DNA of 64,000 bases, from the NCBI GenBank assembly GCA_963422205.2, contig CAXMWX010000005.1, forward strand, positions 160,001 through 224,000. The letters are read 5' to 3'. Source of the DNA: Gammaproteobacteria bacterium (GTDB lineage Bacteria; Pseudomonadota; Gammaproteobacteria; Eutrophobiales; Eutrophobiaceae). Each line of letters starts with the position of its first letter. Position 1 is the first letter of the stretch. The position numbers were made by a program, and so were the translations under genes. Under the pieces are notes generated by a model, which was given only the letters and a program-made list of their open reading frames with translations, ran no database searches and had not been told where the DNA came from. Positions 446 to 24,748 of the stretch are shown piece by piece.

Positions 446-901
446 TTAATCCAGCGCCCTGACATACCTGTGTAATTTCGCCAGACAGTGTTCAAGCTGT
501 TTTAATTCTGCCCTCGTCAGCACACATTCCAATTCTTTCTCAAACCTTAATGCCAGCGGCACGATCCGTCGGTAGCTGGCACGGCCCCTGGCGGTCAAGC
601 GCAACACGGAACGGCGTTTATCCTCGGCAGAAAACGTCCTGTGCAGGAGTTTTTTTTGCAGCAGACGGGCGACGGCACGACTGACCGAGACCTTCACCAT
701 TTCAGTCTCAACACCCACCTGTTCAGCAGACAAACCGGACTTCTCTCCCAGCACCGCCAGCACCCGCCATTCATGGATAGACAGATTAAACGGCGTGGAG
801 TAAAGCCGGGCAAATGCGGTGCTGATCCGGTTGGTCACGACCGACAACTGATAAGGAATAAATTCCCGCAGCTTCAATACCTGATGGTTTTTGTTACTCA
901 T
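446..901 (-). CDS. MarR-family transcriptional regulator (homogentisate pathway-associated)
   Basis: LxLxxFxPYxLS...EWRVLAVL...VSRAVxxL...[11 protein letters not shown] winged-helix signature. ATG at 901 overlaps the hmgA stop (translational coupling), so the ORF-track start at 1012 is likely too long. Confidence 0.9.
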
Positions 902-2240
902 CGGCGGCGGGGAAATATTTTTCCAGTGACTGCCAGCAAGCGGTGTAATGTCTTTGTCTTTGTGCTGATTCCTGGGCGTAGCGGGTGGGGTGGATGATAT
1001 AACGTGATTCAAACATAAACGCCATTGTCGCTTCCTGTTTTACCGGTGCTAACCGGGCATTGCTGGCCTCTTCAAACGCCTGTTTGTCCGGGCCGTGGGC
1101 CGACATACAGTTATGCAGGCTGGCACCGCCGGGCATAAACCCGGCTGGCTTGGCATCATAAACACCATCGATCAAGCCCATGAACTCGCTCATGACGTTA
1201 CGATGATACCAGGGCGGGCGGAAGGTATCCTCGGCCACCATCCAGCGCGGCGGGAAGATCACAAAATCCACATTCGCCATGCCCTCGGTGTCAGACGGTG
1301 ATGTCATGACGGTGAAGATGGACGGGTCGGGATGATCATAGCTGATGCTGCCCATCACATTGAAGCGCTCCAGCGCATATTTATAAGGCAGGGAATTACC
1401 TGCCCAGGCCACCACATCCAGCGGCGAGTGATGCAAAGCGGCCTGGTAGAGCTTGCCGGCGAACTTGCACGTCAGCGTAAACTCGCCCGCTTTATCTTCA
1501 AAGGCAGCCACCGGCGCCATGAAGTCGCGATTATTGGCATAGCCATCAGAGCCCACCGGGCCACGCTCCGGCAGGCGGAATGGGGCGCCGTAGTTTTCAC
1601 AGATATACCCGCGCGCTTCCCCCTCAAGCAGCCTCACCTGAAACTTCATGCCTCTGGGGATCAGGACAATCTCGCCCGGTACGGCGCGCAACCGGCCGCA
1701 CTCGGTAAAAACAGCCAGCCCGCCTGACTCCGGCACGATCAATAACTCGCCATCGGCGTCATAAAAATAACGCCCCTGCATGGACTGATTGGCGGCATAC
1801 ATATGAATGCCGCAACCTGTCTGTGTCGCCGCATCACCATTGGCCGCCAGCGTTACCAGGCCATCAATAAAATCCTGCGGTGTCTCCGGCAGCGGCAGGG
1901 GATCCCAACGCATCGGGGTCGGTGGTGCTGCCACATCGAAAATCGGGGCGGTTTGCCACAAATCATGGGGCAGCGGGGTAAAATCATGCTGCACCACAGA
2001 CGGGCGAATACGATAAAACCAGTTCCGGCGGTTCTCCGCACGTGGTGCAGTGAAGGCGGTGGTGCTGAACTTCTCCGTATACAGGCCATGGGCTACCCTC
2101 TGGGGAGAGAAGCGCCCCCTGGGCAAGGCATCCGGCAAGGCTTCTGATTCCTGCTCATTACCAAAACCGCTGAGGTAGACATAGTCATCGGCCGCCGCTG
2201 CGGTCTTGAGTGGCTGTGTTTTCATGACGCTCGCCATCAT
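894..2240 (-). CDS. hmgA: Homogentisate 1,2-dioxygenase
   Basis: [57 protein letters not shown] motifs. Confidence 0.97.
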
Positions 2241-2343: not shown

Positions 2344-3339
2344 GTGAAATTAGCCAGCCTGAAAACCGGTGGTCGTGATGGTACGCTGGTGGTGGTTGAT
2401 AAAACCCTGTCCCGGGCGGTCGGGGTGCCGCAGATTGCCGCCACCCTGCAGGCCGCTCTGGATGCGTGGGCGAGTAAAGCAGCGGCACTGGTGGAGGTGT
2501 ACCAGGCGCTGAACACTGGCTCCCTCGAAGGTGAGTTTGCCTTTGATCCGACAGTCGCCGCCGCCCCCCTGCCGCGCAGCTATCACTGGGCCGATGGCAG
2601 CGCCTATGTCACCCATGTCGAGTTGGTACGCAAGGCACGGGGGGTGGAGTTGCCGGACGCCTTCTGGACTGATCCGCTGATGTACATGGGCGCATCCGAT
2701 GCATTCATCGGCCCGCACGATGACATACTGGTAGAGGATGAGGACTGGGGCATTGATTTTGAATCCGAAGTGGTGGTGTTTACCGATGATGTGCCGGCTG
2801 GCATCAAGGCAGATAAGGCCGGACGGCATATCAAGCTGCTGGCGCTGGTCAATGATGTGTCTTTGCGTCATCTCATCCCGGCCGAGCTCGCCAAGCAGTT
2901 TGGGTTTTATCAGTCCAAGCCCTGGACTTCGTTTACGCCGGTCGCCATCACGCCCGATGAATTGGGCGCTGCCTGGGATGGCGAGCGGCTGCACCTGCCC
3001 CTGCACTCCACCTTGAACGGGAAAAAACTCGGCGCACCCCATGCCGGGAAGGACATGACGTTTGGTTTTCCCGAGCTGATCTCACACGCCGCCAAGTCCC
3101 GGCATCTGATGGCCGGCAGCGTGATCGGCTCTGGCACGATCGCAACCGTTGGCAGCAAAGACGGCTCATCCTGCCTTGCTGAAATACGCTCTCTGGAAAC
3201 CATTGCGGATGGCAAACCGACAACGGCATTCATGCGCTTCGGTGATCGCATTGAGATCGAGATGTTTGATGCACACGGGGCCAGCCTGTTCGGCAAGATC
3301 GATCAAGTGGTGAAAAAATATGATCCGCCGACCGACTGA
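2344..3339 (+). CDS. fahA: Fumarylacetoacetate hydrolase family protein
   Basis: MKLASLK..GRDG, WADGSAY, IDFESE, NDVSLR, GFYQSKP, GSGT motifs; divergent from hmgA. Confidence 0.88.
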   Translation: MKLASLKTGGRDGTLVVVDKTLSRAVGVPQIAATLQAALDAWASKAAALVEVYQALNTGSLEGEFAFDPTVAAAPLPRSYHWADGSAYVTHVELVRKARGVELPDAFWTDPLMYMGASDAFIGPHDDILVEDEDWGIDFESEVVVFTDDVPAGIKADKAGRHIKLLALVNDVSLRHLIPAELAKQFGFYQSKPWTSFTPVAITPDELGAAWDGERLHLPLHSTLNGKKLGAPHAGKDMTFGFPELISHAAKSRHLMAGSVIGSGTIATVGSKDGSSCLAEIRSLETIADGKPTTAFMRFGDRIEIEMFDAHGASLFGKIDQVVKKYDPPTD

Positions 3340-3437: not shown

Positions 3438-4136
3438 ATGGCCGGTTTTGATAAATGCGTTGGCAGCTATGCGGCGGCCTTAGATGGCCTGGAAGATGGC
3501 ATGACCATCATCGCCGGTGGCTTTGGCTTGTGCGGCATACCGGAGGGCTGCATCGCACAGATAAAAAAAATGGGTTCCCGTGCGCTCACCATCGTTTCCA
3601 ATAACTGCGGGGTGGATGATTTCGGACTGGGGCTGTTGTTGCACGATAAGCAGATCAAAAAAATGATCTCCTCGTATGTGGGTGAGAATGCGCTGTTTGA
3701 AGAGCAGTTGTTAAACGGTGAGCTGGAAGTTGAATTGACGCCACAGGGCACTCTGGCGGAGAGGATGCGCGCAGGGGGTGCTGGCATTCCGGCATTCTAC
3801 ACCGCTACCGGTTACGCAACGCCAGTGGGTGAGAACAAGGAAGTCAGGGAATTCAACGGCAAGCCCTGTATTCTGGAGGAGGCCATCATGGGTGATTTTG
3901 CCATTGTTAAAGGCTGGAAGGCGGATCGCTATGGCAACGTCATCTACCGCCACACGGCGCAAAATTTTAACCCCATGGCAGCGACAGCCGGCAGGATCAC
4001 CGTTGTTGAAGTGGAGGAGATCGTCGAGCCAGGTGCATTGGAGCCTGCACAGATACACACACCGGGCATTTATGTGGATCGCTTGATCCAGGGCCGGTTT
4101 GAAAAACGCATCGAACAACGCACCACGGCGGGGTGA
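3438..4136 (+). CDS. scoA: 3-oxoacid (acetoacetate) CoA-transferase subunit A
   Basis: [45 protein letters not shown]. Confidence 0.93.
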
Positions 4137-4139: not shown

Positions 4140-4799
4140 ATGGCGCTGACTCGTGAACAACTCGCCATGCGCGTGGCCCGGGAGTTGCGGGATGGCTACT
4201 ACGTCAATCTCGGCATCGGTATCCCGACACTGGTGGCCAATTATGTGCCGACAGGCATGGCGGTGATGCTGCAATCAGAAAACGGCTTGCTGGGCATGGG
4301 CGCTTTTCCCGCCGAGGCGGAACTCGATGCCGATATGATCAATGCTGGCAAGCAGACTGTGACGGCGATTACCGGTGCATCGATCTTCAATTCGGCCGAA
4401 TCCTTCGCCATGATACGTGGTGGGCATATCGATCTGACCGTGTTAGGGGCCTTTGAGGTGGACGTACAAGGCAATATCGCCTCCTGGATGATCCCGGGCA
4501 AGCTGATCAAAGGCATGGGCGGGGCCATGGATCTGGTCGCCGGTGCCAGCAATATTATTGTCACCATGACCCATGCCAGCAAGCAGGGCGAATCTAAGCT
4601 GCTGCCACAGTGTCGCCTGCCGCTCACTGGTGCCGCCTGCATTCATAAGGTGGTGACCGATCTGGCGTATGTGGAGATCAGGGACGGGAAATTCTGGCTA
4701 AAAGAGCGGGCGCCGGGCGTCAGTATTGATGAGATCGTGGCAAAGACCGCCGGTGAACTGGTGGTGCCGGCATCGGTGCCGGAGATGGAATTGGGTTAA
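4140..4799 (+). CDS. scoB: 3-oxoacid (acetoacetate) CoA-transferase subunit B
   Basis: VNLGIGIPT, catalytic SENG, GMGGAMDLV. Confidence 0.93.
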   Translation: MALTREQLAMRVARELRDGYYVNLGIGIPTLVANYVPTGMAVMLQSENGLLGMGAFPAEAELDADMINAGKQTVTAITGASIFNSAESFAMIRGGHIDLTVLGAFEVDVQGNIASWMIPGKLIKGMGGAMDLVAGASNIIVTMTHASKQGESKLLPQCRLPLTGAACIHKVVTDLAYVEIRDGKFWLKERAPGVSIDEIVAKTAGELVVPASVPEMELG

Positions 4800-4846: not shown

Positions 4847-5905
4847 CTATGCCGTCAGCACACCCCGGCGCAACTGATCCAGTTCAATCGATTCGAACAG
4901 TGCCTGGAAGTTGCCCTCACCAAACCCCGTATTGCCCTTGCGCTGAATGATCTCAAAGAAGATCGGGCCGATCACGGTCTCGGTGAAGATCTGCAATAAC
5001 ACACCCTGGCCCTCGGTTGGCGCACCATCAATTAGAAGGCTTCTTTGCAGCAACGCCTCCACATCCTCTTCATGCCCGGCAACACGGGTATTGATGTTCT
5101 CATAATAGGTAGCCGGTGTGTCCTGAAAAACGACATGGTTGGCACGCAAGGCATCCACGGAGGCATAAATATCATCGGTGCCGAGTGCGATATGCTGTAC
5201 GCCCTCGCCATTGTACTGCTGCAAGTATTCGGCAATCTGCGACTTATCATCGGCAGACTCATTGATGGGGATATGAATCTTCCCGCACGGGCTGGTCATG
5301 GCACGGCTTCTCAAACCGGTCATCTTGCCCTCGATATCAAAGTATTTCAGCTCACGAAAATTAAACAGCTTCTCATAAAAACCCGCCCACTCGTCCATGT
5401 TGCCACGGGCGACATTGTGAGTCAGATGATCCACATAGGTCAGGCCGGTTTGCCGCACCGCCGGGCTGGGCGCCACGGGTTCAAAGTCAACATCATAGAT
5501 CGTACTGGGACCGTAGCGATCAACCAGATACAAACGGCTGCCGCCGATTCCCTCTATCGCCGGGATGGCGAGTTCCATCGGCCCGATAACATCATTGACG
5601 CCGGTAGCACCCCTGGCGAGCGCATGTTCATACGCTGTACCTGCATCCCTCACCCTAAGAGCAAAAGCACAAATCGACGGGCCATGCTGCTCGGCAAACT
5701 GTTGTGCGAAACTGTCCGGTTCGGCATTGATGATAAAATTGATATCGCCCTGGGAATGCAGGCTGACGTTCTTGCGCCGATGCCTGGCGGTTACCGGAAA
5801 ACCCATTTTCTCAAACAGGTTACGCAATAATCCGGGGTCGGGGGCGGTATATTCGATGAATTCAAAGCCATCTGTGCCCATCGGGTTGGCATGTAAATCA
5901 GTCAT
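4847..5905 (-). CDS. hppD: 4-hydroxyphenylpyruvate dioxygenase
   Basis: NPMGTDGFEFIE, DHLTHNV, QHIAL, FFEIIQRKG..GFGEGNF. Start placed at ATG 5905 behind an AGGAG RBS. Confidence 0.96.
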   Translation of the reverse strand: MTDLHANPMGTDGFEFIEYTAPDPGLLRNLFEKMGFPVTARHRRKNVSLHSQGDINFIINAEPDSFAQQFAEQHGPSICAFALRVRDAGTAYEHALARGATGVNDVIGPMELAIPAIEGIGGSRLYLVDRYGPSTIYDVDFEPVAPSPAVRQTGLTYVDHLTHNVARGNMDEWAGFYEKLFNFRELKYFDIEGKMTGLRSRAMTSPCGKIHIPINESADDKSQIAEYLQQYNGEGVQHIALGTDDIYASVDALRANHVVFQDTPATYYENINTRVAGHEEDVEALLQRSLLIDGAPTEGQGVLLQIFTETVIGPIFFEIIQRKGNTGFGEGNFQALFESIELDQLRRGVLTA

Positions 5906-5968
5906 TGTGAGGCTCCTGTTGTTAGATTGTTGCAGCAGATTATACTGCCTGCTCTTGTCAACCCATAT

Positions 5969-5986
5969 TAGTTGCTTGTGCAACTA
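5969..5986. promoter_or_regulatory. Palindromic operator TAGTTGC-TTGT-GCAACTA, probable MarR site in the hppD/marR divergent promoter
   Basis: Perfect 7-bp inverted repeat, 18 bp in total, sharing consensus TAGTTRC-N4-GYAACTA with 2290-2307. Confidence 0.75.
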
Positions 5987-5994: not shown

Positions 5995-6459
5995 ATGGCA
6001 CGGAAATCATTGCATAACATATTGAAATTAGAGAATTTTCTCCCCTACAGGTTATCCCTGCTATCGAACCTGATGAGCGGTGCTATCGCCAGAACCTATG
6101 AGGATAAGTTCGGTATCTCCATGCCGGAATGGCGCATCATGATGATCCTGGCGGAGTATCCTGACAGTGCCGCCGAGGCGGTGTGCCAGCGCACCCGGAT
6201 TGAAAAATCCGTGGTCAGCCGTGCCTTGTCCCGGTTGACCAAACGCCGCCTGGTAGATCGGAAAACCGACCCGGCAGACCGGCGCCGCTCTGTGTTGCGT
6301 CTGACCGAAACCGGCATGAGTGTCTATGCTGACGTCTTGCCGGTCGCCATCGACTATGAACAACAGTTTCTTGCCGCATTAAGCGATGAGGAGATCACGC
6401 GGCTCAATCAACTGATTGAGAAGCTGATGGCGGTGAGTCATGGCATGGAAAAACCGTAA
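5995..6459 (+). CDS. MarR-family transcriptional regulator (paralog of 446-901)
   Basis: LKLENFLPYRLS...EWRIMMIL...KSVVSRAL...[13 protein letters not shown]. Confidence 0.92.
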   Translation: MARKSLHNILKLENFLPYRLSLLSNLMSGAIARTYEDKFGISMPEWRIMMILAEYPDSAAEAVCQRTRIEKSVVSRALSRLTKRRLVDRKTDPADRRRSVLRLTETGMSVYADVLPVAIDYEQQFLAALSDEEITRLNQLIEKLMAVSHGMEKP

Positions 6460-6689
6460 ACATCACGCACCACACACCGCCAGGGCATCCAGCCGCCGCC
6501 CGGCGATAACGGCAGTGATCCCAAAGGCAGATCATACCGATAGCCCTGCCTGATGGCAGCCCGCCCGTCCTCATCCAAGGGGGGCTTCTTTGTTCGGTGT
6601 ATTTGCGCTAATGTAGACCCCGGTATGGGTGAACCTGTAGCAATGCGGTGAACAAGACCAGGAAAAACGTCAGTGTCGTTGGCTCGGCC

Positions 6690-8345
6690 ATGAACACGGG
6701 CAGAAAAGCCCACAAGAGATATGCGTTCATCAAGCCTGCCGCCATCGCCCGCCATGAGACAGAACACTGCCCGGTGATTATCGTCGGGGCTGGCCCGGTC
6801 GGGCTGACCGCAGCAATCGATCTGGCCCGGTACGGTATCAACTCCATCGTGCTGGAAAAATACAATACCATCAGCGATGGTTCACGTGCTATCTGCTGGG
6901 CAAAGCGTACCCTGGAGATACTCGACCGCCTGGGCACGGGCGAGCGCATGCTGGAGAGGGGCGTGATCTGGAATACCGGAAAGATGTTTGCCGATGCAGA
7001 TCGAGAGCCGCTGTACAGCTTCGACCTGCTGGCCGATAAGGATCAGCAGTTCCCGGCTTTTATCAACCTGCAACAATACTACACGGAAGAGTATCTGATC
7101 GAACAGCTTGCCGAGTTAAGCCTTGGCGAGATACGCTGGCAGAACACCGTGCTTGCGATCGATAATCGAGCCGATGAGGTCATCATCACAGTCGACACGC
7201 CCGCCGGACAATATCAGCTTGCCTGTGATTATCTGATTGCCGCCGATGGGTGCCGCAGCCAGGTGCGTGATTGCCTGGGGCTGGATTTTGACGGACGTAT
7301 TTTTGAAGATAACTTTTTGATCGCCGATGTCAAAATCCATACCGATTTCCCGGCAGAGCGGCGTTTCTGGTTTAACCCGCCGTTTAATCCGGGGCAGACC
7401 TCGTTAATCCACAAGCAGGCAGACGATGTCTACCGGATTGATTTTCAGTTGGGCTGGGACATTGATAAACAAGCCGCCTTAAAAGAAGAAAATGTGACCA
7501 AAAAAGTCCGGGCATTTCTCGGGCCGGGGGTAGATTTTCAATATGAATGGGTCAGCCTCTACACCTTTGCCTGCCTGCGTATGGAAAAATTTGTCCATGA
7601 CCGGGTCATTTTTGCCGGCGATGCCGCCCACCTGGTCTCCCCCTTCGGCGCCCGTGGTGCCAATGGCGGTATTCAGGATGCCGACAATCTGATATGGAAA
7701 CTGGCCCTGGTGTTAAACGGCCTGGCCTCACAAGAGCTGCTTCAATCCTATGATGCCGAGCGCATTTACGGTGCGGATGAGAATATCATGAACTCGGCGC
7801 GCAGCACCGATTTCATGTCGCCCAAAGGGGAAGTCAGCCTGGCGTTTCGCAATGCCACCCTGGAGTTGGCACGGGATTTTGAGTTCGCCCGCCGCTTTGT
7901 CAACGGCGGGCGGCTGTCAGTGCCGTGCACTCTGGATGAGTCACCGCTCAATACAAAAGATGAGGACCGGTTCTCTGACAAGCAGCGCCCTGGCTCGCCC
8001 TGCATGGATGCACCGATCCGTGCCAACAATCAGGATAGCTGGTTGTTAAAGCGACTGGGAAATCGTTTTGTCGGTTTATATTTTACCGATGGAACAACGG
8101 CATCACCACGGCCAGAGGACATAGCCACAGCCGCCGCCATCCCCCCCATCCCCCTGGAGTTGCTCATCGTCAATCAACAGAACACCGGGGATGTATACGA
8201 TAAAAAGGGGCTGGCATTTCAACATTACGATGCAACCCCGGGCACCTTCTATCTTATCCGCCCGGATCAGCATGTGGCGGCACGCTGGCGGCAGTTTAAT
8301 GCGGATAAAGTCGCAGCGGCCTTGAGAGTGGCTACCGCCCAGTAA
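6690..8345 (+). CDS. FAD-dependent aromatic-ring monooxygenase (MhaA-like hydroxyphenylacetate hydroxylase candidate); start uncertain (6648 or 6690)
   Basis: IVGAGPVG Rossmann motif, ADG, GDAAH..PFGARGANGG, C-terminal YLIRPDQHVAARW domain; clustered with MBL-fold and DUF2783 genes. Confidence 0.85.
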   Translation: MNTGRKAHKRYAFIKPAAIARHETEHCPVIIVGAGPVGLTAAIDLARYGINSIVLEKYNTISDGSRAICWAKRTLEILDRLGTGERMLERGVIWNTGKMFADADREPLYSFDLLADKDQQFPAFINLQQYYTEEYLIEQLAELSLGEIRWQNTVLAIDNRADEVIITVDTPAGQYQLACDYLIAADGCRSQVRDCLGLDFDGRIFEDNFLIADVKIHTDFPAERRFWFNPPFNPGQTSLIHKQADDVYRIDFQLGWDIDKQAALKEENVTKKVRAFLGPGVDFQYEWVSLYTFACLRMEKFVHDRVIFAGDAAHLVSPFGARGANGGIQDADNLIWKLALVLNGLASQELLQSYDAERIYGADENIMNSARSTDFMSPKGEVSLAFRNATLELARDFEFARRFVNGGRLSVPCTLDESPLNTKDEDRFSDKQRPGSPCMDAPIRANNQDSWLLKRLGNRFVGLYFTDGTTASPRPEDIATAAAIPPIPLELLIVNQQNTGDVYDKKGLAFQHYDATPGTFYLIRPDQHVAARWRQFNADKVAAALRVATAQ

Positions 8346-8634
8346 GATCACCCCGTAAGGCATGGCGGAAAAACAGCGGTCAGCCCTTGATCATCGTCTG
8401 GCATGGCATCTGCTGGTTTTTATCTCACCCCGGCAGTTTTTCGGCGTATGATGATCCTCCCTGATCGCACGTATCCCACACATGCCGGGCAAAAATACTC
8501 CCTGATCTGCGGCCATCATGCCGCAAGATATCAGCGGCAAAATCAACCCGGTCCCCCTTACATAAGAACAGCTTTTGTGTCAATTTCATGGCAGAATTGA
8601 GGGCATACATGACAACATGATTGAGGTGCGACCA

Positions 8635-10925: not shown

Positions 10926-10937
10926 GATTATTCGCTC

Positions 10938-12117: not shown

Positions 12118-12129
12118 GGCCAGGCCCGG

Positions 12130-16550: not shown

Positions 16551-16902
16551 ACCGGCCAGATAAACCAGCAGCCTACCCCTCCATCGTGCCAGAAAAAACA
16601 CCATGCCGGGCGAATAGCTGTACGGCGGCGAACTCAACCGCCGACCCCCAAAGCGATGCGTCAGTGCAGGGTGTCATGTGTGTCAGCATCGCTTCAATCT
16701 GCGGCCAGGGGTTGGGATCAGGCACAACGCAAGAGGTCAGAATCAACCGGTGATTTCACCCGCCAGACGCTGAAACCGCCCGCAGCCTGCCACCTCCTCC
16801 GCAGCCGTCCCGGCAGAGCGTCCACTTGTCACCCTGGCGGCATTTGTTAAAATTCAGGCACGATCCGTATTCCGGGCGAGACCATCCATAGCAGGCGTCA
16901 TC

Positions 16903-18288
16903 TTGCAATCCGAATCAGCCACCCAACGCACCGTACTTCTCATCGTCTGCCTGGGGGCGTTCATATCGCCCCTGATGCTCTCTGCGGTCAACGTGGCTAT
17001 TCCGGGGATTGCACAGGACTTCGGGGCAACCGCCACCGCCATCAGCTGGATACCGCTGGCCTATCTACTGAGCAGCGCCGTGTTCATGTTACCGGCGGGG
17101 CGCATTGCCGATGGCTACGGGCGCAAGCGCATCTACCAGACCGGCATGATCGTCATCACCGTGGCCTCCTCGCTGGCGGCACTGAGCGAGTCCATCGGCT
17201 GGCTGCTGTTTTGCCGGGCCTTGCAGGGCCTGGGGGCGGCCATGTTATTCGCCACCGGCCAGGCCATGCTGGCCTCGGTCTTCCCACCGGCCAAACGTGG
17301 CCGTGCCATCGGCCTGTCCGTCTCCGCCGTGTATCTGGGGCTGACCGCCGGGCCGGCACTGGGTGGCTGGGCGATAGCGGCTTACGGCTGGCGCGCCAGC
17401 CTGCTCATCCACCTGCCGTTGGCCCTGCTGGTCATCGGCATCACGCGGCTGAAATTAACCGGCGACTGGCGGGGTGATGAGAGCAGAAAGCTCGATCTGA
17501 CCGGCAGCCTGATCTATGGCGGGGCGCTGGTTATCAGCATGTACGGCTTATCTTCACTGCCCGGGGCAACAGGCATTGCCTGCATCATTCTCGGCTGTGT
17601 CGGCTTTATTGTGTTCTTTCGTTATGCCCGCCGGCGTGCTGATCCCATCTTTGATGTCAGCCTGTTTCGCACCAACCGGCTGTTTACTTTTTCCTGCCTT
17701 GCCGCCCTGGCGATCTATGCAGCAACCTTCAGCATTTCCTATCTGATGAGCCTATACCTGCAATACATCAAAGGGCTGGCAGCCGACAGCGCCGGCATCA
17801 TCATGATCGGCCAGCCCTTAATCATGACCTTATTATCGCCAGTGGCAGGCAGACTGTCAGACAAATATGAAGCCTGGGTGCTGGCCTCATCGGGCGTTGG
17901 GCTTGTCTGTGTCGGGCTGGGCCTGCTGGCAAGCCTGACGGCAGACAGCGCTGTGATGACGGTTTTTATCTACCTGATGCTGACCGGGATGGGTTTCGCC
18001 CTGTTCAGCGCACCGAATATGAATGCCATCATGAGTTCGGTCAACAAGCGCCATTTAGGGCTTGCCGCCGGCTCTGTCAGCACCATGCGTGTACTCGGGC
18101 AAATGATCAGCATGGCGATAGTCACCGTGGTATTTGCTTTGCTGGTGGGGCCTGTTGAGGTGGTCTTGCTCGATCATGACCTGCTGATGCACAGCATTCG
18201 CATGAGCTTCGTGGCCGCTGCCTGCCTTGCGGCCACGGCCATCCCCTTATCGCTGAAGCGGGGCAACATGCGCCTTGATGCAGGTTGA
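16903..18288 (+). CDS. MFS transporter, DHA2 (EmrB/QacA-like, ~14 TM)
   Basis: VNVAIP, GRIADGYGRKR motif A, GPALGG motif C, GRLSDKY; many hydrophobic helices. Confidence 0.9.
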   Translation: MQSESATQRTVLLIVCLGAFISPLMLSAVNVAIPGIAQDFGATATAISWIPLAYLLSSAVFMLPAGRIADGYGRKRIYQTGMIVITVASSLAALSESIGWLLFCRALQGLGAAMLFATGQAMLASVFPPAKRGRAIGLSVSAVYLGLTAGPALGGWAIAAYGWRASLLIHLPLALLVIGITRLKLTGDWRGDESRKLDLTGSLIYGGALVISMYGLSSLPGATGIACIILGCVGFIVFFRYARRRADPIFDVSLFRTNRLFTFSCLAALAIYAATFSISYLMSLYLQYIKGLAADSAGIIMIGQPLIMTLLSPVAGRLSDKYEAWVLASSGVGLVCVGLGLLASLTADSAVMTVFIYLMLTGMGFALFSAPNMNAIMSSVNKRHLGLAAGSVSTMRVLGQMISMAIVTVVFALLVGPVEVVLLDHDLLMHSIRMSFVAAACLAATAIPLSLKRGNMRLDAG

Positions 18289-18321: not shown

Positions 18322-19182
18322 TTACGGGCGTTTGCCGTAACGCCAGCGGGTGGCGAAGGTAAACACCCGCTCATCACACACATCAATACACCGCCCGCAG
18401 TTGGTGCAGTCACCACTTAAGATCAATGGGCTGGCCTGCTCGTTGGCCGGTTTCAATGCCGGGGCGATCACCTGGGGTTCAGGGCAGTGCGTAAAGCAAT
18501 CCCCACAGTCAGTGCATGCCTGCCTGTCAGCGGCTTTAATGCGGATCAGGGAGACCTTGCCCAGCACGCCATAGAACACGCCCACCGGGCAGAGATGCCC
18601 ACACCAGGCACGGCGGCTGACAAAGACATCCAGCAGAAATACCGCCAGCATGATCACCCAGGCCATGCCCATGCCGAAGACCAGCCCTCGTTGTAACAGG
18701 GTGATCGGGTTGACTATCTCCCAGGCAATCGTTGTGGTCAGGGCAGAGACGATCAGCACCATGATAAACAGCCAGTTGCGGCTGGATTTTTTCAGTGGCA
18801 GGCTGGCGCTGATCCCCAGTTGGGTACGCAACCAATAGGCCAGATCCGTGACGATGTTGATCGGACACACCCAGGAGCAATATGCCCGGCCGCCCAGCAG
18901 CAGGTAGATGATGACGACATTCAGCGCACCCATGCTCGCAAGCGTGCCCATCTTGTGGCCGGCGGCAATCGATTGCAGGTAGATATACGGATCAGTCAAG
19001 GGCAGGACAGAGAACACCGTACTGGAGGCAAGATTCCCTTTGAGGATCCACAGCCCATAGAGCGGCCCGGCAAGAAACAGGCCCAGCAATGTCAACTGCG
19101 AGGTGCGCCTTAGCAGCCACCATGTATGCCGGCTGAACCAGGAACGCCTGCTCGTTACAGACATGACGGCTTGCTGTCCCAT
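18322..19182 (-). CDS. napH: NapH/MauN-family membrane polyferredoxin (quinol dehydrogenase subunit)
   Basis: LRRTSQ, GRAYCSWVCP, WCGHLCP, two CxxCxxCxxxC ferredoxin motifs. Confidence 0.9.
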   Translation of the reverse strand: MGQQAVMSVTSRRSWFSRHTWWLLRRTSQLTLLGLFLAGPLYGLWILKGNLASSTVFSVLPLTDPYIYLQSIAAGHKMGTLASMGALNVVIIYLLLGGRAYCSWVCPINIVTDLAYWLRTQLGISASLPLKKSSRNWLFIMVLIVSALTTTIAWEIVNPITLLQRGLVFGMGMAWVIMLAVFLLDVFVSRRAWCGHLCPVGVFYGVLGKVSLIRIKAADRQACTDCGDCFTHCPEPQVIAPALKPANEQASPLILSGDCTNCGRCIDVCDERVFTFATRWRYGKRP

Positions 19183-19186: not shown

Positions 19187-19843
19187 TTAGCGGTCCTGCT
19201 TCGCCAGCACCGTTGGTAACACCTTGATGGACGCCTGCTCTGTCACGCACGCTTTCTCACACTTGCCGCAGCCGGTGCAATGGGCGGCATGGACTGTCGG
19301 CTCAAAATAGGTGCGGCGGCCGGTGCGTTTTTGCTCCATCGTGATCGCCTCGCCTTGCAGCGGACAGGCCAGATAACAGGCACGGCAATGGGCGGCGCCC
19401 GTGATGCTGTAGCAGGTATCCAAACCCGTCATCACCGCCACCCCCATGCTCGCCTGCCCGACATCATCAAGCTCCTTGCTCAAGGCATCGGTCGGGCAGG
19501 CGGCGGTACAGGGAATATCCTCGCACATCTCACAGGGCACCTGGCGGGCGATGAAATACGGCGAGCCAGTCGCCACGTCCTCGGCAAATGTGGCCAGGCG
19601 CAAGGTATCAAACGGGCAAGCACGCACACACAGGCCGCAACGCACACAGGCAGCCAAAAAGTCCTCATCATCAATGGCACCGGGCGGGCGCAGCGCCCAA
19701 GCCGGGGTCGAGACAGACTGCGCTGAATAGGCGCCAAGCAAGAGGCCGATGAGGCTGAAACCGCCCGCCGTTTGCAGGCACTGCCCGACAAACTGCCGCC
19801 GACTCAGGTAATGTGCGTGATCTGGATTCGCTGTATCGGCCAT
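19187..19843 (-). CDS. napG: NapG/MauM-family periplasmic 4Fe-4S ferredoxin
   Basis: Tat motif SRRQF, LRPPGA, CVRCGLCVRACP, PCEMCEDIPC, CTGCGKCEKAC. Confidence 0.9.
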   Translation of the reverse strand: MADTANPDHAHYLSRRQFVGQCLQTAGGFSLIGLLLGAYSAQSVSTPAWALRPPGAIDDEDFLAACVRCGLCVRACPFDTLRLATFAEDVATGSPYFIARQVPCEMCEDIPCTAACPTDALSKELDDVGQASMGVAVMTGLDTCYSITGAAHCRACYLACPLQGEAITMEQKRTGRRTYFEPTVHAAHCTGCGKCEKACVTEQASIKVLPTVLAKQDR

Positions 19844-19954: not shown

Positions 19955-20314
19955 TCAGCAACTTCTTATGCAGGCATTCTCTATCTCACGGCAATCGTAT
20001 CGACAAGATACGCTACCACCCCGGCAAGACAGATCACAGGTCTTCTTTTCTTTCAAACAACGATACTCACATCTTTTACGCTTTTTTTCTGATCTTTCAG
20101 CGAGAATTGCTCGCTTTATCCTGAGCACATCGCTTGGATAAACTGCAAACAGCAAGTCATTGTCGCTTGATTGCCCCGAGGCAAAGGGGTTGGACGCATC
20201 ACACAAGACCAGGGGGGCTGACTCACCAGCGATGGGTATCGCCTCATCGGCGATTGTGGCGGTGTTGGATAGGGTAGTAGCGACAAGGGATAACAGGCAG
20301 ATAAGGTGTTTCAT
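19955..20314 (-). CDS. Small secreted cysteine-rich protein (119 aa) with four CX3C motifs
   Basis: AGGAG RBS, then MKHLICLLSLVA signal-like N-terminus. C-terminus is KKRKR-CEYRC-X6-CDLSC-X6-CRYDC-X6-CIRSC-stop. Confidence 0.75.
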   Translation of the reverse strand: MKHLICLLSLVATTLSNTATIADEAIPIAGESAPLVLCDASNPFASGQSSDNDLLFAVYPSDVLRIKRAILAERSEKKRKRCEYRCLKEKKTCDLSCRGGSVSCRYDCREIENACIRSC

Positions 20315-20535
20315 ATTTTCAGTCTCCTGTGTTATTAGATGACACCCGACACGCAGCAGGGTGTCGGGCATTTCAACATGCGCTAACACAGGAAAGCACA
20401 CCCTACTTATTTCCGGGTGGTCTTGTATTCGTAGGATACCCGACCGGGGGGCTCCTGTGTTAAACGCAAGACACAGATTTCTGTTGAAGGAAACCTGTAT
20501 GCAGGGCATACTACACACGCAACATTAAAATGCAA
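20315..20535 (-). promoter_or_regulatory. Structured 5' leader and candidate promoter of the Cys-rich gene
   Basis: TTGCAT-N16-TAGTAT (20535-20508). RBS-containing 11-mer TAACACAGGAG occurs twice (20462-20452, 20334-20324) with its complement TCCTGTGTTA (20393-20384) between them. Hairpin CCCGACAC/GTGTCGGG at 20345-20368. Confidence 0.5.
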
Positions 20536-20628: not shown

Positions 20629-21105
20629 TCATAACTGCGTCTGTAACGGCAGTTCGGTCGTGTCCTTGATCTCGGTGACGGCGATGGTGGAGTGCATTTC
20701 CCGAATCATCGGCAAGCTCATCAAGTGATTGCGGATGAAGCGCTCATAATGCTGGATGTCTTTGGTGATGATCTTCAGCAGGTAATCCATGGTGCCGGTC
20801 ACGGTATAACAGGCCAGCACTTCAGGGAATTTGCGGATGGCTTTTTCAAACTCCTCCAGGTTTTCCCGACCATGGGCGGACAGGCTGATGGTAACGAACA
20901 CCACCACCTCCATGCCCAGCTTGACGTGATCCAGCACAGCGACCCGGCGCTTGATCAAGCCGGCCTGCTGCAAGCGGCTGATACGCCGCCAGCAAGGGGA
21001 CTGTGACAGACCGACCCGGGCGGCGACCTGGGCCGTGCTCAAGGCCGCATTACGCTGCAATAATTGCAATATTCGGATATCGCTGTCATTCAACTCAATC
21101 GGCAT
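20629..21105 (-). CDS. Lrp/AsnC-family transcriptional regulator
   Basis: DIRILQLLQ..A....VA.RVGLSQSPCWRRI HTH, CYTVTGTMDYLL RAM domain. Confidence 0.95.
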   Translation of the reverse strand: MPIELNDSDIRILQLLQRNAALSTAQVAARVGLSQSPCWRRISRLQQAGLIKRRVAVLDHVKLGMEVVVFVTISLSAHGRENLEEFEKAIRKFPEVLACYTVTGTMDYLLKIITKDIQHYERFIRNHLMSLPMIREMHSTIAVTEIKDTTELPLQTQL

Positions 21106-21238: not shown

Positions 21239-24200
21239 ATGGCGCCCACACCTGTCCCCCCGGCAATGATTTCACTGGAAGATAAATACGCCCTGGATGC
21301 CACCCGTGCATACATCACTGGCATTGAAGCCCTGGTCAGGCTGCCCATCCTGCAACACCAGCGTGACCTGGAAGCAGGGCTGAATACCGCCGGCTTCATC
21401 TCCGGTTATCGCGGCTCCCCGCTGGGCAATCTAGACCAGTCACTGTGGCAGGCAAAGCCGCATCTGGACAAACATCACATCCACTTCCAGCCCGGTGTCA
21501 ACGAAGACCTGGCCGCCACTGCCGTCTGGGGTTCGCAGCAGGTGAACCTGTTTCCCCAGGCGAAGTACGATGGCGTCTTCGGCTTATGGTATGGCAAAGG
21601 CCCGGGGGTGGATCGCAGCATGGACGCCATCCGTCATGCCAATGCGTTTGGCACCGCAAAATACGGCGGCGTGCTGGCAATCGCCGGCGATGATCATGCG
21701 TGCAAGTCCTCCACCTTGCCGCACCAGAGTGAGCATCTGTTCATCGGCGCCTCCATTCCGGTGTTAAGCCCGGCCAATGTACAGGAGGTGCTGGACTTGG
21801 GAGTCTACGGGTGGGAATTGTCACGTTACAGCGGCTGCTGGGTGGCGTTGAAAGCGATCACGGAAAACATGGACTCCGCCCTATCGGCCGAGATCGATCC
21901 GCATCGGGTGAGCATAACCCGGCCGGATGATTTTGCCCTGCCCGATGACGGCGTCAATGCCCGCTGGCCGGACCTGCCGCTGGCGCAGGAGCGGCGGCTG
22001 AACAAATATAAAATTTACGCGGCGCGACATTTTGCCTATGTCAACCGGCTGAATCGGATCATGCTGGACAGCGATAACCCGCGCTTGGGAATCATCACGG
22101 CTGGCAAGGCATATCTGGATGTCTTGCAGGCGCTGGATGATCTGGGTATTGATGCGGCCGAGGCGGGGCGTATCGGCCTTAGGGTTTACAAGCTGGGCAT
22201 GAGCTGGCCGTTGGAGCCGCTCGCCACGCACGCCTTTGCTGAAGGGCTGGAGGAGATCCTGGTGGTGGAGGAGAAACGCAGCATTATCGAAGATCAACTC
22301 ACCGGGCAATTATACAACTGGCCAGTAGATAAACGTCCACGTGTGGTCGGCGAGTTTGATGAGCACGGGGCTGACTTGCTGCCGAACATCGGCGAGCTCA
22401 CCCCCGCCCTGGTCGCCAAGGCGATCGCCTCGCGCACCGGCAGGTTTTATACCAGCAAAACCATTGAGCAACGGCTGGCCTTTCTGACAGCAAAAGCGCA
22501 GCGCTTATCTGCCCCCCGAAATGTGCTCACCCGTGTGCCTTATTTTTGCTCCGGCTGCCCGCATAACAGCTCGACCAAAGTGCCGGCAGGCAGCCGGGCG
22601 ATGGCCGGCATAGGCTGTCACTACATGGTGCAGTGGATGGATCGCCAGACCCTGACATTCACACACATGGGCGGCGAAGGGGCCACCTGGATTGGTCAGG
22701 CGCCGTTTACCGACACCGAACATGTGTTTCAAAACCTGGGCGATGGCACGTATTTTCACTCCGGCATTCTTGCCATACGCGCCGCCATCGCCGCCGGGGT
22801 CAACATCACGTATAAAATTCTCTACAACGATGCCGTGGCCATGACCGGCGGGCAAAAAGTCGAGGGCAATTTGAGTGTGAGCCAGATCGTCAACCAGCTT
22901 ATCGGCGAGGGTATCAAACGTATTGCGATCCTCACCGATGAGATGAAGCCTTACCCTGACATCTTCCCTGGCTTTGCTGGCCTTAGCATTGATCAGCGTG
23001 ACCGGCTTGAGGCTATTCAACTGGAACTGAGACAGATAACCGGCACCACGATCATCATCTATGATCAGACCTGTGCTGCCGAGAAACGTCGGCGCCGGAG
23101 AAAAAATCTGCTGCCAGGGCCGGCCCGACGTATTTTTATCAACGAGGAGGTCTGCGAAGGCTGTGGGGATTGCGGCATCCAGTCGAATTGTTTATCGGTC
23201 CTGCCCAGGGAAACCCCGCTTGGACGCAAGCGACAAATTGACCAGCATGCCTGTAATCAGGACTTCAGTTGTGTTGAGGGCCTTTGCCCCAGTTTTGTCT
23301 CCGTGATGGGCGCTGAGTTGAAGACAGGCAAGCCCGTTGGACAGACAACGATAGTCAATGCCTTGCCGAAGCCGGACCTGCCATCACTCGCCCAGCCCTG
23401 GAATATCCTGATCACGGGCATAGGCGGCACGGGTGTGCTGACTGTCAGCTCTATCCTGGCCATGGCGGCACACATTGAGGGCAAGGGTTGTTCGGTATTA
23501 AACCAGACCGGACTGGCACAAAAATTTGGCTCGGTCATCAGCCATGTCCGCATCGGCGCACAGCAGGACGATATCCATGCGGTAAGAATAGCGGCCGGTG
23601 ATGCCGATCTCCTATTAGGTGGCGATCTGGTGGTGGCGGCCTCGGATGAGGCACTGACCAAACTGCACCGGCAGCGCTCATATGCCATCATCAATGCCTG
23701 TCACTCGCCAACGGCGGATTTTATTACCGCACCGGATGCCATATTTCCAGCCGATGCCATGCGTACCACTGTGCTGGAAGAAGTTGGGGCGGACAAGGCC
23801 TGGTTCATTGATGCGATGAGTATCAGCACGCAGATACTGGGCGATCCCATCGCCTGCAACGTATTGCTGCTGGGGTATGCCTGGCAACGGGGGTTGATCC
23901 CCGTCAGCGCCGAGGCTATAAATCAGGCGCTTGCGGTGAACGGCGTGGCGGTTGAACTTAACCGCCAGGCATTTCTGTGGGGCCGGCGCACAGCATCTGA
24001 TGAGGAGGCCGTGCTGGCCAGGGTGGATAGAACAGAAGCCGGACAGAAAGCGCCGGTGCAGATCGATGAGATCATTCGAGACAGACATCAGCGCCTGTGT
24101 GATTATCAGGACAAGCCCTGTGCAGATGCGTATGAAAAATTTATCACCCACACAAGAGCGGCTGAAAAACAGGCTGTCGGCCAGACGGTGGCGAATAAAA

Positions 24201-24748
24201 ACGGAGAGGAATTCAGCCGTGCCGTGAGCTGTAATCTGTATAAACTTATGGCATATAAAGATGAATATGAAGTCGCCCGGCTGTATAGCAATGGAAAATT
24301 TATGCAGCAACTCAATGCCACATTCAGCGGCGACTTCACCTTGCGCTTTCATCTGGCCCCGCCGATCCTGGCGCGCCGGGATCATGCCAGCGGCAGATTG
24401 AAAAAACGTACCTTCCCACAGGCAACGCTGGTCTTGTTTGCCTTGCTGGCAAAGCTGAAATATCTGCGTGGCGGTTGGTTTGATGTATTTGGCTATAAGG
24501 AAGAGCGCATGCGGGAGCGGCGGCTGATTGCTGAGTATAAAGCAACTATCAATGCGATTTTGACCGACATCAACGCGGAAAATTATGCCACAGCGGTAAA
24601 GTTAGCCCGGCTGCCGGAGCAAATCAGAGGATTTGGTGTGGTCAAGTCTGCGAATATGAAAAAAGCAGCACGTGAAAAAACCAGGTTACTGAATCAATTT
24701 TACCATCGCTTGCCAGAAGCACGGCGTTCACCTGATCAAACGGCATAA
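21239..24748 (+). CDS. Fused indolepyruvate/phenylpyruvate:ferredoxin oxidoreductase (IorAB family)
   Basis: SGYRGSPLG, NEDLAAT, WYGKGPGVDRS, FCSGCPHN, TPP motif GDGT...YNDAVAMTGGQ, CEGCGDC ferredoxin motif, GIGGTG, AYKDEYEVARL. Confidence 0.93.
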   Translation: MAPTPVPPAMISLEDKYALDATRAYITGIEALVRLPILQHQRDLEAGLNTAGFISGYRGSPLGNLDQSLWQAKPHLDKHHIHFQPGVNEDLAATAVWGSQQVNLFPQAKYDGVFGLWYGKGPGVDRSMDAIRHANAFGTAKYGGVLAIAGDDHACKSSTLPHQSEHLFIGASIPVLSPANVQEVLDLGVYGWELSRYSGCWVALKAITENMDSALSAEIDPHRVSITRPDDFALPDDGVNARWPDLPLAQERRLNKYKIYAARHFAYVNRLNRIMLDSDNPRLGIITAGKAYLDVLQALDDLGIDAAEAGRIGLRVYKLGMSWPLEPLATHAFAEGLEEILVVEEKRSIIEDQLTGQLYNWPVDKRPRVVGEFDEHGADLLPNIGELTPALVAKAIASRTGRFYTSKTIEQRLAFLTAKAQRLSAPRNVLTRVPYFCSGCPHNSSTKVPAGSRAMAGIGCHYMVQWMDRQTLTFTHMGGEGATWIGQAPFTDTEHVFQNLGDGTYFHSGILAIRAAIAAGVNITYKILYNDAVAMTGGQKVEGNLSVSQIVNQLIGEGIKRIAILTDEMKPYPDIFPGFAGLSIDQRDRLEAIQLELRQITGTTIIIYDQTCAAEKRRRRRKNLLPGPARRIFINEEVCEGCGDCGIQSNCLSVLPRETPLGRKRQIDQHACNQDFSCVEGLCPSFVSVMGAELKTGKPVGQTTIVNALPKPDLPSLAQPWNILITGIGGTGVLTVSSILAMAAHIEGKGCSVLNQTGLAQKFGSVISHVRIGAQQDDIHAVRIAAGDADLLLGGDLVVAASDEALTKLHRQRSYAIINACHSPTADFITAPDAIFPADAMRTTVLEEVGADKAWFIDAMSISTQILGDPIACNVLLLGYAWQRGLIPVSAEAINQALAVNGVAVELNRQAFLWGRRTASDEEAVLARVDRTEAGQKAPVQIDEIIRDRHQRLCDYQDKPCADAYEKFITHTRAAEKQAVGQTVANKNGEEFSRAVSCNLYKLMAYKDEYEVARLYSNGKFMQQLNATFSGDFTLRFHLAPPILARRDHASGRLKKRTFPQATLVLFALLAKLKYLRGGWFDVFGYKEERMRERRLIAEYKATINAILTDINAENYATAVKLARLPEQIRGFGVVKSANMKKAAREKTRLLNQFYHRLPEARRSPDQTA

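Follow-up and report, generated by a model that had tools for sequence, protein, structure and literature searches.

The window analysed here is a stretch of 64,000 nucleotides from a gammaproteobacterium of the family Eutrophobiaceae (assembly GCA_963422205.2, contig CAXMWX010000005.1, positions 160,001 to 224,000 of the forward strand; C7:160001-224000 of source genome G000, which is 98% complete), and the subject is a block of aromatic catabolic genes at positions 446-24748. The block brings together homogentisate pathway genes, a trio encoding an MhaA-like hydroxylase, a metallo-beta-lactamase (MBL)-fold protein and a DUF2783 protein, an operon for a tryptophan tryptophylquinone (TTQ) amine dehydrogenase led by a TonB-dependent receptor (TBDR), and a fused indolepyruvate:ferredoxin oxidoreductase (IOR). 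On balance, we lean towards reading it as the right-hand part of a mosaic catabolic island that has several entries and three sinks and is built from separately conserved modules.

Gene identities come from a listing of open reading frames (ORFs), short ones included, that was scanned against Pfam and NCBIfam, and the 40 kb of contig C7 to the left of the window were annotated likewise. Comparisons were made with 60 relatives, 36 of them from the same family (kin are not independent of one another), and with wider surveys of loci; G numbers denote relatives' genomes and L numbers surveyed loci. A preliminary description of the block had listed 22 ORFs at 446-24748, and all 22 were found by the ORF listing, Pfam and NCBIfam. 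Promoter-like sites from a pattern scan were about as many as in shuffled sequence and were not used as evidence.

The block and its island

The left end of the block holds the homogentisate genes. Homogentisate 1,2-dioxygenase is encoded by hmgA (894-2240, minus strand; HgmA_N 371.9 bits, HgmA_C 256.3 bits), with a MarR regulator gene downstream on the same strand (446-1012; Pfam MarR_2 46.1 bits), and a MarR homolog also follows hmgA in G001, G003, G009, G010 and G030. On the plus strand lie the gene for a 331-residue fumarylacetoacetate (FAA)-hydrolase-family protein, likely the fumarylacetoacetase FahA (2344-3339; FAA_hydrolase 122 bits, FAA_hydro_N_2 90 bits), and the genes for subunits A and B of 3-oxoacid CoA-transferase, scoA (3438-4136; TIGR02429 235.5 bits, cut-off 128.5) and scoB (4140-4799; CoA_trans 156.1 bits). 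The 331-residue protein reached no NCBIfam equivalog, and its assignment to fahA is at the level of the Pfam family together with the kept adjacency to hmgA, from which fahA diverges in G001, G003, G007, G010, G017, G026 and G030. Homologs of scoB (87-90% identity) adjoin scoA, maiA and fahA in G007 and G017. The gene for 4-hydroxyphenylpyruvate dioxygenase, hppD (4847-5983, minus strand; TIGR01263 393.3 bits, cut-off 277), is divergent from a second MarR regulator gene (5995-6459, plus strand; MarR_2 52 bits), and the two MarR proteins of the window are 39% identical to each other. Maleylacetoacetate isomerase is absent from the block; its gene, maiA (C7:145400-146224; TIGR01262 250.2 bits, cut-off 171.05), is located some 14 kb before the window begins, and with it the genome has the complete central pathway of HppD, HmgA, MaiA and FahA. 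The core from tyrosine through homogentisate to acetoacetate that the preliminary description had proposed from hppD, hmgA, fahA and scoAB is present, with maiA outside the block.

Next on the plus strand is the trio. The MhaA-like FAD-dependent aromatic hydroxylase of 565 residues (6648-8345; NF006002 772.6 bits, cut-off 416; FAD_binding_3 218.6 bits) is the only large FAD_binding_3 aromatic hydroxylase found in the genome. It is followed by the MBL-fold gene (8575-9594, plus strand, likely start 8635; Lactamase_B 46.4 bits) and by the gene for the small DUF2783 protein of at most 74 residues (9564-9788, plus strand; PF10932 80.6 bits, cut-off 25), which was seen only among the short ORFs, runs in the same operon direction as mhaA and the MBL gene, and occurs in one copy per genome in the five genomes searched. 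The MBL protein shows some 70% identity across the Gamma- and Betaproteobacteria and carries HYHAVR, invariant in 39 aligned homologs, in place of the zinc motif HxHxDH that is normal for MBL-fold proteins; a solved homolog, PDB 8d2z (421 bits), bears no function name. In the literature searched, no paper on MBL proteins of the 8d2z type was found, and DUF2783 was named only in an unrelated context. A structure-predicted complex of the MBL and DUF2783 proteins scored 0.00, which counts neither for nor against binding.

Convergent with the trio, on the minus strand, is the amine dehydrogenase operon. The TBDR gene (13386-15626; plug and beta-barrel domains) stands directly upstream of mauB for the beta-propeller heavy subunit (12130-13419, likely start 13308; PF06433 Me-amine-dh_H 146.4 bits), and genes follow for a MauE-like membrane accessory protein (11572-12117; PF07291 91.3 bits), a MauD-like thiol-disulfide accessory protein (10938-11579; TIGR02661 179.3 bits, cut-off 188.6) and the TTQ small subunit, mauA (10371-10925; PF02975 Me-amine-dh_L 169.1 bits). 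A TetR regulator gene (15873-16550, plus strand; TetR_N, TetR_C_6) is divergent from this operon. Of the features of the TTQ amine dehydrogenase family, both subunits, the TTQ residues, and mauE and mauD between the subunit genes are present. The small subunit has a Tat-like (twin-arginine) motif SRRSFL, Trp109 and Trp160 at a spacing of 51 residues, and Asp128; from the literature on aromatic amine dehydrogenase (AADH) and methylamine dehydrogenase (MADH) we take the two tryptophans to form TTQ and Asp128 to be the catalytic aspartate. Against PDB entries, the small subunit scores 165.2 bits with AADH and 121.5 bits with Paracoccus denitrificans MADH, and the heavy subunit 163.5 and 124.4 bits, so that by alignment score the enzyme is nearer AADH than P. 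denitrificans MADH in both subunits. The heavy subunit falls far under the MADH equivalog cut-off (TIGR02658 154.9 bits, cut-off 454.45) and the small subunit just under its own (TIGR02659 170.5 bits, cut-off 196.85).

The 580-nucleotide gap between the convergent DUF2783 and mauA genes (9789-10370) has no convincing ORF. No decayed cytochrome c or thioesterase gene was found in it, unlike relatives that carry one there, and the minus strand has a terminator-like hairpin there, at 10229-10204 (consensus pattern match).

To the right of the TetR gene, a gene for a major facilitator superfamily (MFS) transporter (16903-18288, plus strand; MFS_1 210 bits; TIGR00711 207.6 bits, just under the cut-off of 230.2) resembles the DHA2/EmrB efflux type; its candidacy as an aromatic-acid symporter was rejected on that resemblance. 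An MFS gene also accompanies the mau cluster in G007, G009 and G017. The minus strand then encodes a NapH/MauN-type membrane ferredoxin protein (18322-19182; NF007013 384.2 bits, cut-off 234; TIGR02163 above its cut-off) and a NapG/MauM-type ferredoxin protein (19187-19843; TIGR00397 218.9 bits, cut-off 178.85; NF007012 266.2 bits, cut-off 269) with a Tat-like motif, SRRQFV, near its N-terminus. A NapH-like gene near a mau cluster also occurs in G017 and L151. In G017 the napG/napH-like pair (L034:12700-17605) is preceded by a class I/II aminotransferase gene and followed by the gene for a 676-residue molybdopterin oxidoreductase, and because of these flanks that pair may serve a molybdoenzyme and not the amine dehydrogenase. 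Directly upstream of the NapG-like gene is an ORF of 187 residues (19955-20518, minus strand) with no Pfam or NCBIfam match and no homolog in the relatives' loci; read from an internal Met near 20314, it likely encodes a secreted protein of about 120 residues that has a signal peptide and is rich in Cys in its C-terminal part.

The block closes with an Lrp/AsnC regulator gene (20629-21105, minus strand; AsnC_trans_reg 83.1 bits, HTH_24 63.6 bits) divergent from the gene for the fused IOR of 1169 residues (21239-24748, plus strand; NF009588 1626.7 bits, cut-off 952; DUF6537, POR and TPP_enzyme_C domains), a pair that is also found in G007 and L063. Directly 3' of the IOR gene come rplQ, rpoA, rpsD and secY, and because of this operon the right border is real. 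The left border of the block is set by the edge of the window, beyond which the island runs on upstream for about 36 kb. The block makes up about 40% of this aromatic catabolic island of about 61 kb (C7:123.7-184.7 kb), which is flanked by two housekeeping operons, gatAB on the left and rplQ-rpoA on the right.

Leftwards from the window start, a tetratricopeptide repeat-like ORF comes first, followed by genes for an aldehyde:ferredoxin oxidoreductase of the AOR family (C7:157268-159013; AFOR_N 195.9 bits, AFOR_C 175.7 bits, so that both domains of the family are present) and for a group-II pyridoxal phosphate-dependent decarboxylase of the aromatic amino-acid type (C7:155687-157141), an ORF of no assigned family, and an hpa meta-cleavage set (C7:147.8-154.8 kb) encoding an HpaH-like protein, HpaI aldolase, two HpaG-like proteins of the FAA-hydrolase family, HpaE, a LigB-type dioxygenase and a 5-carboxymethyl-2-hydroxymuconate (CHM) isomerase. 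An acyl-CoA synthetase gene separates this set from maiA, to the left of which are a second MBL-fold gene, a transporter gene and a GntR regulator gene. Further left lie a second TTQ cluster (C7:132.9-140.9 kb; TBDR, amidase, amidohydrolase, mauB2, mauA2 and cytochrome c), four mobile- or defence-like genes (C7:128457-132294; PcfJ-like, WYL, GIY-YIG and PD-(D/E)XK), a gene for a PaaK-like ligase (C7:125848-127197) and paaZ (C7:123706-125748). The second TTQ cluster (C7:132950-140892) is without mauE and mauD, and its MauB2 and MauA2 are 42% and 63% identical to the window copies; it may share the accessory genes of the window cluster, and its amidase and amidohydrolase suggest amide-bound amines as substrates. 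The four genes between the paaK-like gene and this cluster resemble a mobile or defence insertion in the island.

Conservation and linkage of the modules

With the window MBL protein as probe, 575 loci were confirmed, and neighbours were sought in the best 80 of them by local tblastn (coverage of at least 0.5; truncated contigs kept in the denominator). Among these, mhaA was present in 67, DUF2783 in 64 and hmgA in 34, followed by fahA (14), hppD (3), mauBEDA (2) and IOR with Lrp (1), and the mhaA-MBL-DUF2783 trio is thereby a widespread module. In the available portion of PMC3053370, MhaA of Pseudomonas putida U (566 residues, a flavoprotein) and MhaB (60 residues, coupling) turn 3-hydroxyphenylacetate into homogentisate, and homologs of 560 and 60 residues lie directly beside hmgA1 in strain LB400. 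A match of the window trio to this MhaAB-type, homogentisate-forming hydroxylase is supported by size and position. Since the usual betaproteobacterial order is MBL-mhaA-DUF2783-hmgA, DUF2783 holds the place of the 60-residue mhaB of LB400, and judged by size and position alone it is the probable MhaB-type coupling protein. The linkage to hmgA makes conversion of a hydroxyphenylacetate to homogentisate the most likely function of the trio.

MauB was matched in 12 of the 60 relatives, 11 of these within the family, and orthologs with 57-64% identity were found in five family genomes. In the 40-kb stretches around these five orthologs, a TBDR gene directly precedes mauB in four, mauE and mauD are present in four, and MBL-DUF2783 lies 1-17 kb from mauA in four, even where mhaA is elsewhere; hmgA, hppD, fahA, scoAB, mhaA and IOR were found in none of the five stretches. 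One of the relatives, G007, has MBL-DUF2783 beside the mau operon and 1.15 Mb from mhaA. The G007 mhaA ortholog (C1:346797-348444) aligns as two separate segments (residues 10-499 and 515-562), suggestive of a broken reading frame.

A wider survey by alignment probe covered 78 mau loci, in which features were counted within 10 kb of mauB, both overall and in a subset of 21 loci with a MauB that shares at least 55% identity with that of the window. A TBDR was present in 44 of 78 (18 of 21), TetR in 26 (16 of 21), mauE in 46 and mauD in 49 (10 and 10 of 21), DUF2783 and MBL in 5 each (5 and 4 of 21) and an MFS gene in 5 (5 of 21). Neither hmgA nor hppD occurred in any of the 78 loci or of the 21, and mhaA, IOR and fahA each occurred in one of the 78 and in none of the 21. 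Clustering of the neighbouring ORFs at the 78 loci gave cytochrome c (50), TBDR (46), TetR (28), acyl-CoA synthetase (18), NAD aldehyde dehydrogenase (16), short-chain dehydrogenase/reductase (11), acyl-CoA dehydrogenase (10), enoyl-CoA hydratase (9), biotin carboxylase (8), carboxyltransferase (7) and MerR (7). TetR-TBDR-mauBEDA is a module separate from the homogentisate genes, yet it recurs beside MBL-DUF2783.

A quick IQ-TREE phylogeny of MauB placed the window protein in a clade of 17 rows (support 96 by the Shimodaira-Hasegawa-like approximate likelihood ratio test), in which a subclade of nine rows is nested (support 100). The subclade holds loci with a leucine context: in eight loci (L140-L146 and L196; MauB 61-66% identical) TetR, TBDR, mauB and mauA are followed by a MerR regulator gene and a leucine/isovalerate gene set of acyl-CoA dehydrogenase, carboxyltransferase, enoyl-CoA hydratase and biotin carboxylase, at about 6700-18100 in each locus. 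The other rows of the larger clade carry mauE and mauD, and five of the rows, together with the window, also have MBL-DUF2783.

Among the 36 family relatives, MauB is found in 11, hmgA in 10 (orthologs with 65-78% identity), the MhaA type in 9, AOR in 14 and IOR in 4; MauB and hmgA occur together in nine genomes, MauB alone in two and hmgA alone in one. In G003 a cluster of about 50 kb begins with AOR, the decarboxylase, a paralog of the FAD monooxygenase, TBDR, mauBAED and a further TBDR, and continues with DUF2783-MBL-mhaA, maiA, fahA, hmgA and marR, then mauBA. Within 15 kb, G026 has TetR, TBDR, mauB, mauD, mauA, a FAD-monooxygenase paralog, maiA, fahA and hmgA. The TBDR-mau clusters of these two genomes, 7-22 kb from hmgA, are paralogous to that of the window, and their MauB proteins fall in a different clade of the quick tree. 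In G017 the mau and hmgA genes are 67 kb apart. The link between the mau and homogentisate genes is thus recurrent, has arisen more than once and is not fixed.

The single linked unit that the preliminary description had proposed does not hold as a fixed arrangement: its sub-clusters are unlinked in most relatives, with hmgA and hppD missing from the vicinity of mauB throughout the 78-locus survey, and it is G003 and G026 that keep mau beside hmgA. The co-occurrence of mauBEDA with these genes that it had put forward for checking was borne out within the family, where several genera have an amine dehydrogenase cluster beside MBL-DUF2783 or hmgA, and failed for hmgA and hppD across the wider survey.

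Entries, sinks and alternative readings

On the reading favoured here, the island offers three sinks, namely homogentisate, a homoprotocatechuate-type meta cleavage and phenylacetyl-CoA, and is therefore not one homogentisate funnel. The hpa meta-cleavage set in the same island removes homogentisate as the sole sink of the preliminary description, a reading confined to the window, from which one portion of a three-sink island was mistaken for a lone funnel. From gene linkage we infer a flow in which a primary arylethylamine would enter through the TonB receptor and be oxidised to an arylacetaldehyde by the periplasmic TTQ enzyme, whose electrons would probably pass to a c-type cytochrome encoded in the second TTQ cluster. 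AOR would take the arylacetaldehyde to the arylacetate, MhaA/DUF2783 (with the MBL protein) would hydroxylate hydroxyphenylacetate to homogentisate, and HmgA, MaiA and FahA would yield fumarate and acetoacetate, the latter activated by ScoAB. Besides external amines taken in through the TBDR and the TTQ enzyme, the putative entries are tyrosine directly through HppD, amino acids through the decarboxylase and arylpyruvates through IOR. Phenylacetate (via PaaK) and IOR-derived phenylacetyl-CoA would go to the paa pathway and catecholic arylacetates to the hpa meta-cleavage genes; that the amine from the cytoplasmic decarboxylase might be exported by the efflux-like MFS transporter is a guess. 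The thread from amine to aldehyde (AOR), to hydroxyphenylacetate (MhaA/DUF2783/MBL) and on to homogentisate is plausible.

The aldehyde step had been left by the preliminary description to an aldehyde dehydrogenase outside the window. None is indeed present in the window, and a strong candidate, the AOR, sits just outside it, 1.9 kb upstream of hmgA. A search of the genome for an arylacetaldehyde dehydrogenase, also suggested there, returned few PF00171 matches (HpaE and PaaZ in the island, the others on contig C11). AOR and hmgA are separated by 1.9 kb in both G000 and G030, by 0.6 kb in G007, by 2.8 kb in G010 and by 11.8 kb in G009, and G017 has an AOR paralog at a distance of 0.6 kb from hmgA; because it lies within 3 kb of hmgA in four family genomes, AOR, an enzyme of the tungsten/molybdenum type, is probably the best candidate for this step. 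In the best 80 of 577 AOR loci, hmgA, fahA and maiA all fall within 10 kb in four and the decarboxylase is directly downstream in six; the loci with hmgA or the decarboxylase are all among the closest AORs (71-80% identity), and the more distant AORs have neither. Against PDB, the protein scores 182.7 bits with 9mqx, 182 with 1aor and 155 with 8c0z. The AOR of Aromatoleum aromaticum oxidises aldehydes of the phenylacetaldehyde type in phenylalanine degradation (available portion of PMC6365974).

The decarboxylase has 4obu as its closest PDB entry (212 bits). A role as aldehyde synthase was rejected, since its catalytic loop has Tyr where the Arabidopsis protein 6eei has Phe338; this Tyr corresponds to the residue altered by mutation in 4riz and 4rj0 and is the catalytic-loop Tyr of true decarboxylases, so the enzyme should release an amine rather than an aldehyde. 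A copper amine oxidase was not found in the genome, and genes of the flavin amine-oxidase family occur only outside the island, which leaves the TTQ enzymes as the sole candidates for amine oxidation in the island. The likely electron acceptor is the c-type cytochrome of the second TTQ cluster (C7:132959-133588), 37 kb away. The only cupredoxin-family match in the genome (C3:481643-481807) is a partial one with two TGA codons in frame.

IOR had been placed by the preliminary description among the routes into homogentisate. IOR makes arylacetyl-CoA, and the hydroxylase acts on the free acid. Given such a product, the lack of a thioesterase in the window, and paa genes both in the island (paaK, paaZ) and on contig C5 (paaA, paaC, paaE and paaX), the phenylacetyl-CoA route is a more plausible destination for IOR than homogentisate. 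A thioesterase gene of the 4HBT type does follow mauA in G017 and G031, in G017 between mauA and DUF2783. The IOR gene of G001 is on the same contig as a PaaZ-like gene, mauB2A2 and maiA, and those of G017 and G030 are without linkage to island modules.

Several observations weigh against the mosaic, multi-entry reading and the flow drawn from it. Oxygen sensitivity is common among AOR enzymes. The AOR and decarboxylase genes of G000 stand directly upstream of the hpa genes, on the same strand, and form no run with hmgA; because the decarboxylase amine would arise in the cytoplasm and the TTQ enzyme is periplasmic, there is also a topological gap. The small subunit scores 160.5 bits with the MADH light-chain entry 3c75_L, which includes the leader. 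No mauG was found in the cluster or the island (the genome has one CCP_MauG-family match, C9:47961-48410, in a 660-residue frame), and no cytochrome c or clear cupredoxin gene lies beside mauA. To these are added the rarity of homogentisate genes around mauB in the 78 loci, and distances of more than 100 kb between the mau cluster and hmgA in G007, G030 and G031. In G001, a genome of the same genus (92% complete, about 200 contigs), the only MauB seen is of the paralog type, and the contig with scoB-mhaA-MBL-DUF2783 runs on into DNA matching G000 C7:540-543 kb and not into mau. The exact 24-kb arrangement was found in no other genome surveyed.

The best placed of the alternatives, which we nevertheless hold to be doubtful, is that TBDR-mauBEDA stands beside the homogentisate genes incidentally and oxidises aliphatic or other non-aromatic primary amines, such as isoamylamine, to a product outside the homogentisate route. 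The neighbours of the nearest MauB subclade are liuR and the genes for isovaleryl-CoA dehydrogenase and methylcrotonyl-CoA carboxylase, so aliphatic amines fit, and this leucine/isovalerate context hints at isoamylamine-type substrates; the acyl-CoA synthetase and NAD-type aldehyde dehydrogenase genes at 18 and 16 of the 78 loci fit aliphatic amines as well, and both the missing hmgA within 10 kb of mauB and the missing ortholog of the window mau cluster in G001 agree with an incidental position. The liu-context loci are, however, nested within the 17-row clade whose other members have mauE and mauD and, in five rows and the window, MBL-DUF2783, a pair otherwise tied to mhaA and hmgA. TTQ clusters of a different clade stand beside hmgA in G003 and G026, and for both subunits the score with AADH exceeds that with P. 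denitrificans MADH. The entry of tyramine-like amines through an AADH, as the preliminary description had it, accordingly keeps its AADH-like scores and its recurrent MBL-DUF2783 or hmgA neighbours in its favour, and has the leucine context of the nearest MauB subclade against it.

It is improbable, in our estimation, that the amine dehydrogenase, decarboxylase and AOR mainly feed homoprotocatechuate meta-cleavage (dopamine or L-DOPA to 3,4-dihydroxyphenylacetate), with homogentisate not the main sink. The classical tyramine and dopamine route through homoprotocatechuate is known from Escherichia coli and P. putida. The hpa pathway is summarised in PMC3053370 (available portion). In G000, AOR, the decarboxylase, the unassigned ORF, hpaH, hpaI, two hpaG-like genes, hpaE and the genes for the LigB-type dioxygenase and CHM isomerase share one strand at C7:147.8-159.0 kb, and HpaE is over its equivalog cut-off (776.9 bits, cut-off 638.35). 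Against such a main sink, no HpaB-type 4-hydroxyphenylacetate 3-hydroxylase was found in the 98%-complete genome, so 4-hydroxyphenylacetate derived from tyramine could not reach homoprotocatechuate in this way; the LigB-type dioxygenase misses the HpaD model (37 bits, cut-off 316), and AOR, with or without the decarboxylase, adjoins hmgA and not hpa in G007, G010, G030 and L235-L238.

Less probable still is the version of the preliminary description, in which the 24 kb form one co-regulated unit where tyrosine, amines and IOR-derived arylacetyl-CoA all converge on homogentisate: the block is contiguous without an unrelated insert, Lrp-IOR of G007 is separated from hmgA by 13 kb and from mhaA by 26 kb, L063 has IOR-Lrp directly beside MBL-mhaA-DUF2783, and the G017 thioesterase could free an arylacetate from its CoA ester, but a single transcription unit is hard to square with the four different regulators and with a strand that changes at least seven times, IOR lies within 10 kb in just one of the best 80 MBL loci and one of the 78 mau loci and occurs in 4 of the 36 family relatives against 10 for hmgA, phenylacetyl-CoA has its own paa pathway and no thioesterase in the window to divert it, and the modules are dispersed in most relatives.

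Returning to the mosaic island with its three sinks, we tentatively propose a joint reading in which a single-subunit, pterin-dependent AOR would be a dedicated step of the aerobic homogentisate pathway in this marine/aquatic gammaproteobacterial family, linking two aldehyde sources, the TBDR-fed periplasmic TTQ enzyme and the cytoplasmic decarboxylase, to MhaA-MBL-DUF2783. The decarboxylase amine would be exported, perhaps by the DHA2-like MFS transporter, the hydroxylase would have the MBL protein as a third component, obligatory and so far undescribed, and TonB uptake would be a general way of feeding TTQ enzymes (a TBDR within 10 kb in 44 of the 78 loci by homology and in 46 by clustering). 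If confirmed, this would give functions to DUF2783 and to MBL proteins of the 8d2z type, extend AOR biology into aerobic aromatic catabolism in a bacterium that also uses oxygenases, and show how oligotrophic aquatic bacteria scavenge biogenic amines.

Comparison with known systems

Biogenic-amine catabolism classically runs from an amine oxidase and an NAD aldehyde dehydrogenase into paa or hpa, as in tynA-feaB of E. coli and the 'catabolons' of P. putida U. The island is alike in the sequence of amine, arylacetaldehyde, arylacetate and central pathway, and in the clustered genes that serve paa, hpa and hmg; it differs in its TBDR-fed TTQ dehydrogenase, its candidate pterin-dependent AOR and the place of homogentisate among the sinks.

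Classical mau clusters, as in Paracoccus, include mauM and mauN. The window shares with them the order mauB, mauE, mauD, mauA and nearby NapG/NapH-like genes of the MauM/MauN type, whereas its cluster has no amicyanin, mauF or mauG gene and adds the TonB receptor, TetR and MFS genes, and its heavy subunit is far below the MADH cut-off, with the small subunit and MauD just below theirs. The AADH of Alcaligenes faecalis (PDB 2agl/2agy series) is of the same two-subunit, periplasmic TTQ type; the small subunits align over 132 residues, about half of them identical, and mauE- and mauD-like genes between the subunit genes are a further likeness. In contrast to AADH, a TBDR and TetR lead the operon here, no azurin gene was found in the genome, and the likely acceptor is the c-type cytochrome 37 kb off.

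The MhaAB and hmgABC systems of P. putida U and Paraburkholderia xenovorans LB400 have the same FAD hydroxylase of about 565 residues and a protein of about 60 residues by the homogentisate genes (available portion of PMC3053370), a layout seen likewise in 64-67 of the best 80 of 575 MBL loci. What sets the present system apart is a highly conserved MBL gene as third member, both here and in the survey, the word 'lactamase' being absent from the available portion of PMC3053370, and the separation in several relatives of MBL-DUF2783 from mhaA, beside the TTQ operon.

The tungsten enzyme AorABC of A. aromaticum belongs to the same AOR catalytic family and is likewise tied to aromatic amino-acid breakdown through phenylacetaldehyde (available portion of PMC6365974). 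By comparison, the AOR of the island is a single gene with no adjoining aorA or aorC, scores higher with the archaeal-type entries 9mqx and 1aor (about 182 bits) than with 8c0z (155 bits), and is embedded in a homogentisate cluster. TBDR-coupled TTQ dehydrogenases, an AOR within a homogentisate cluster and an MBL protein that travels with MhaA and DUF2783 were none of them found described in the literature searched; each enzyme family is known, and what is new is their combination.

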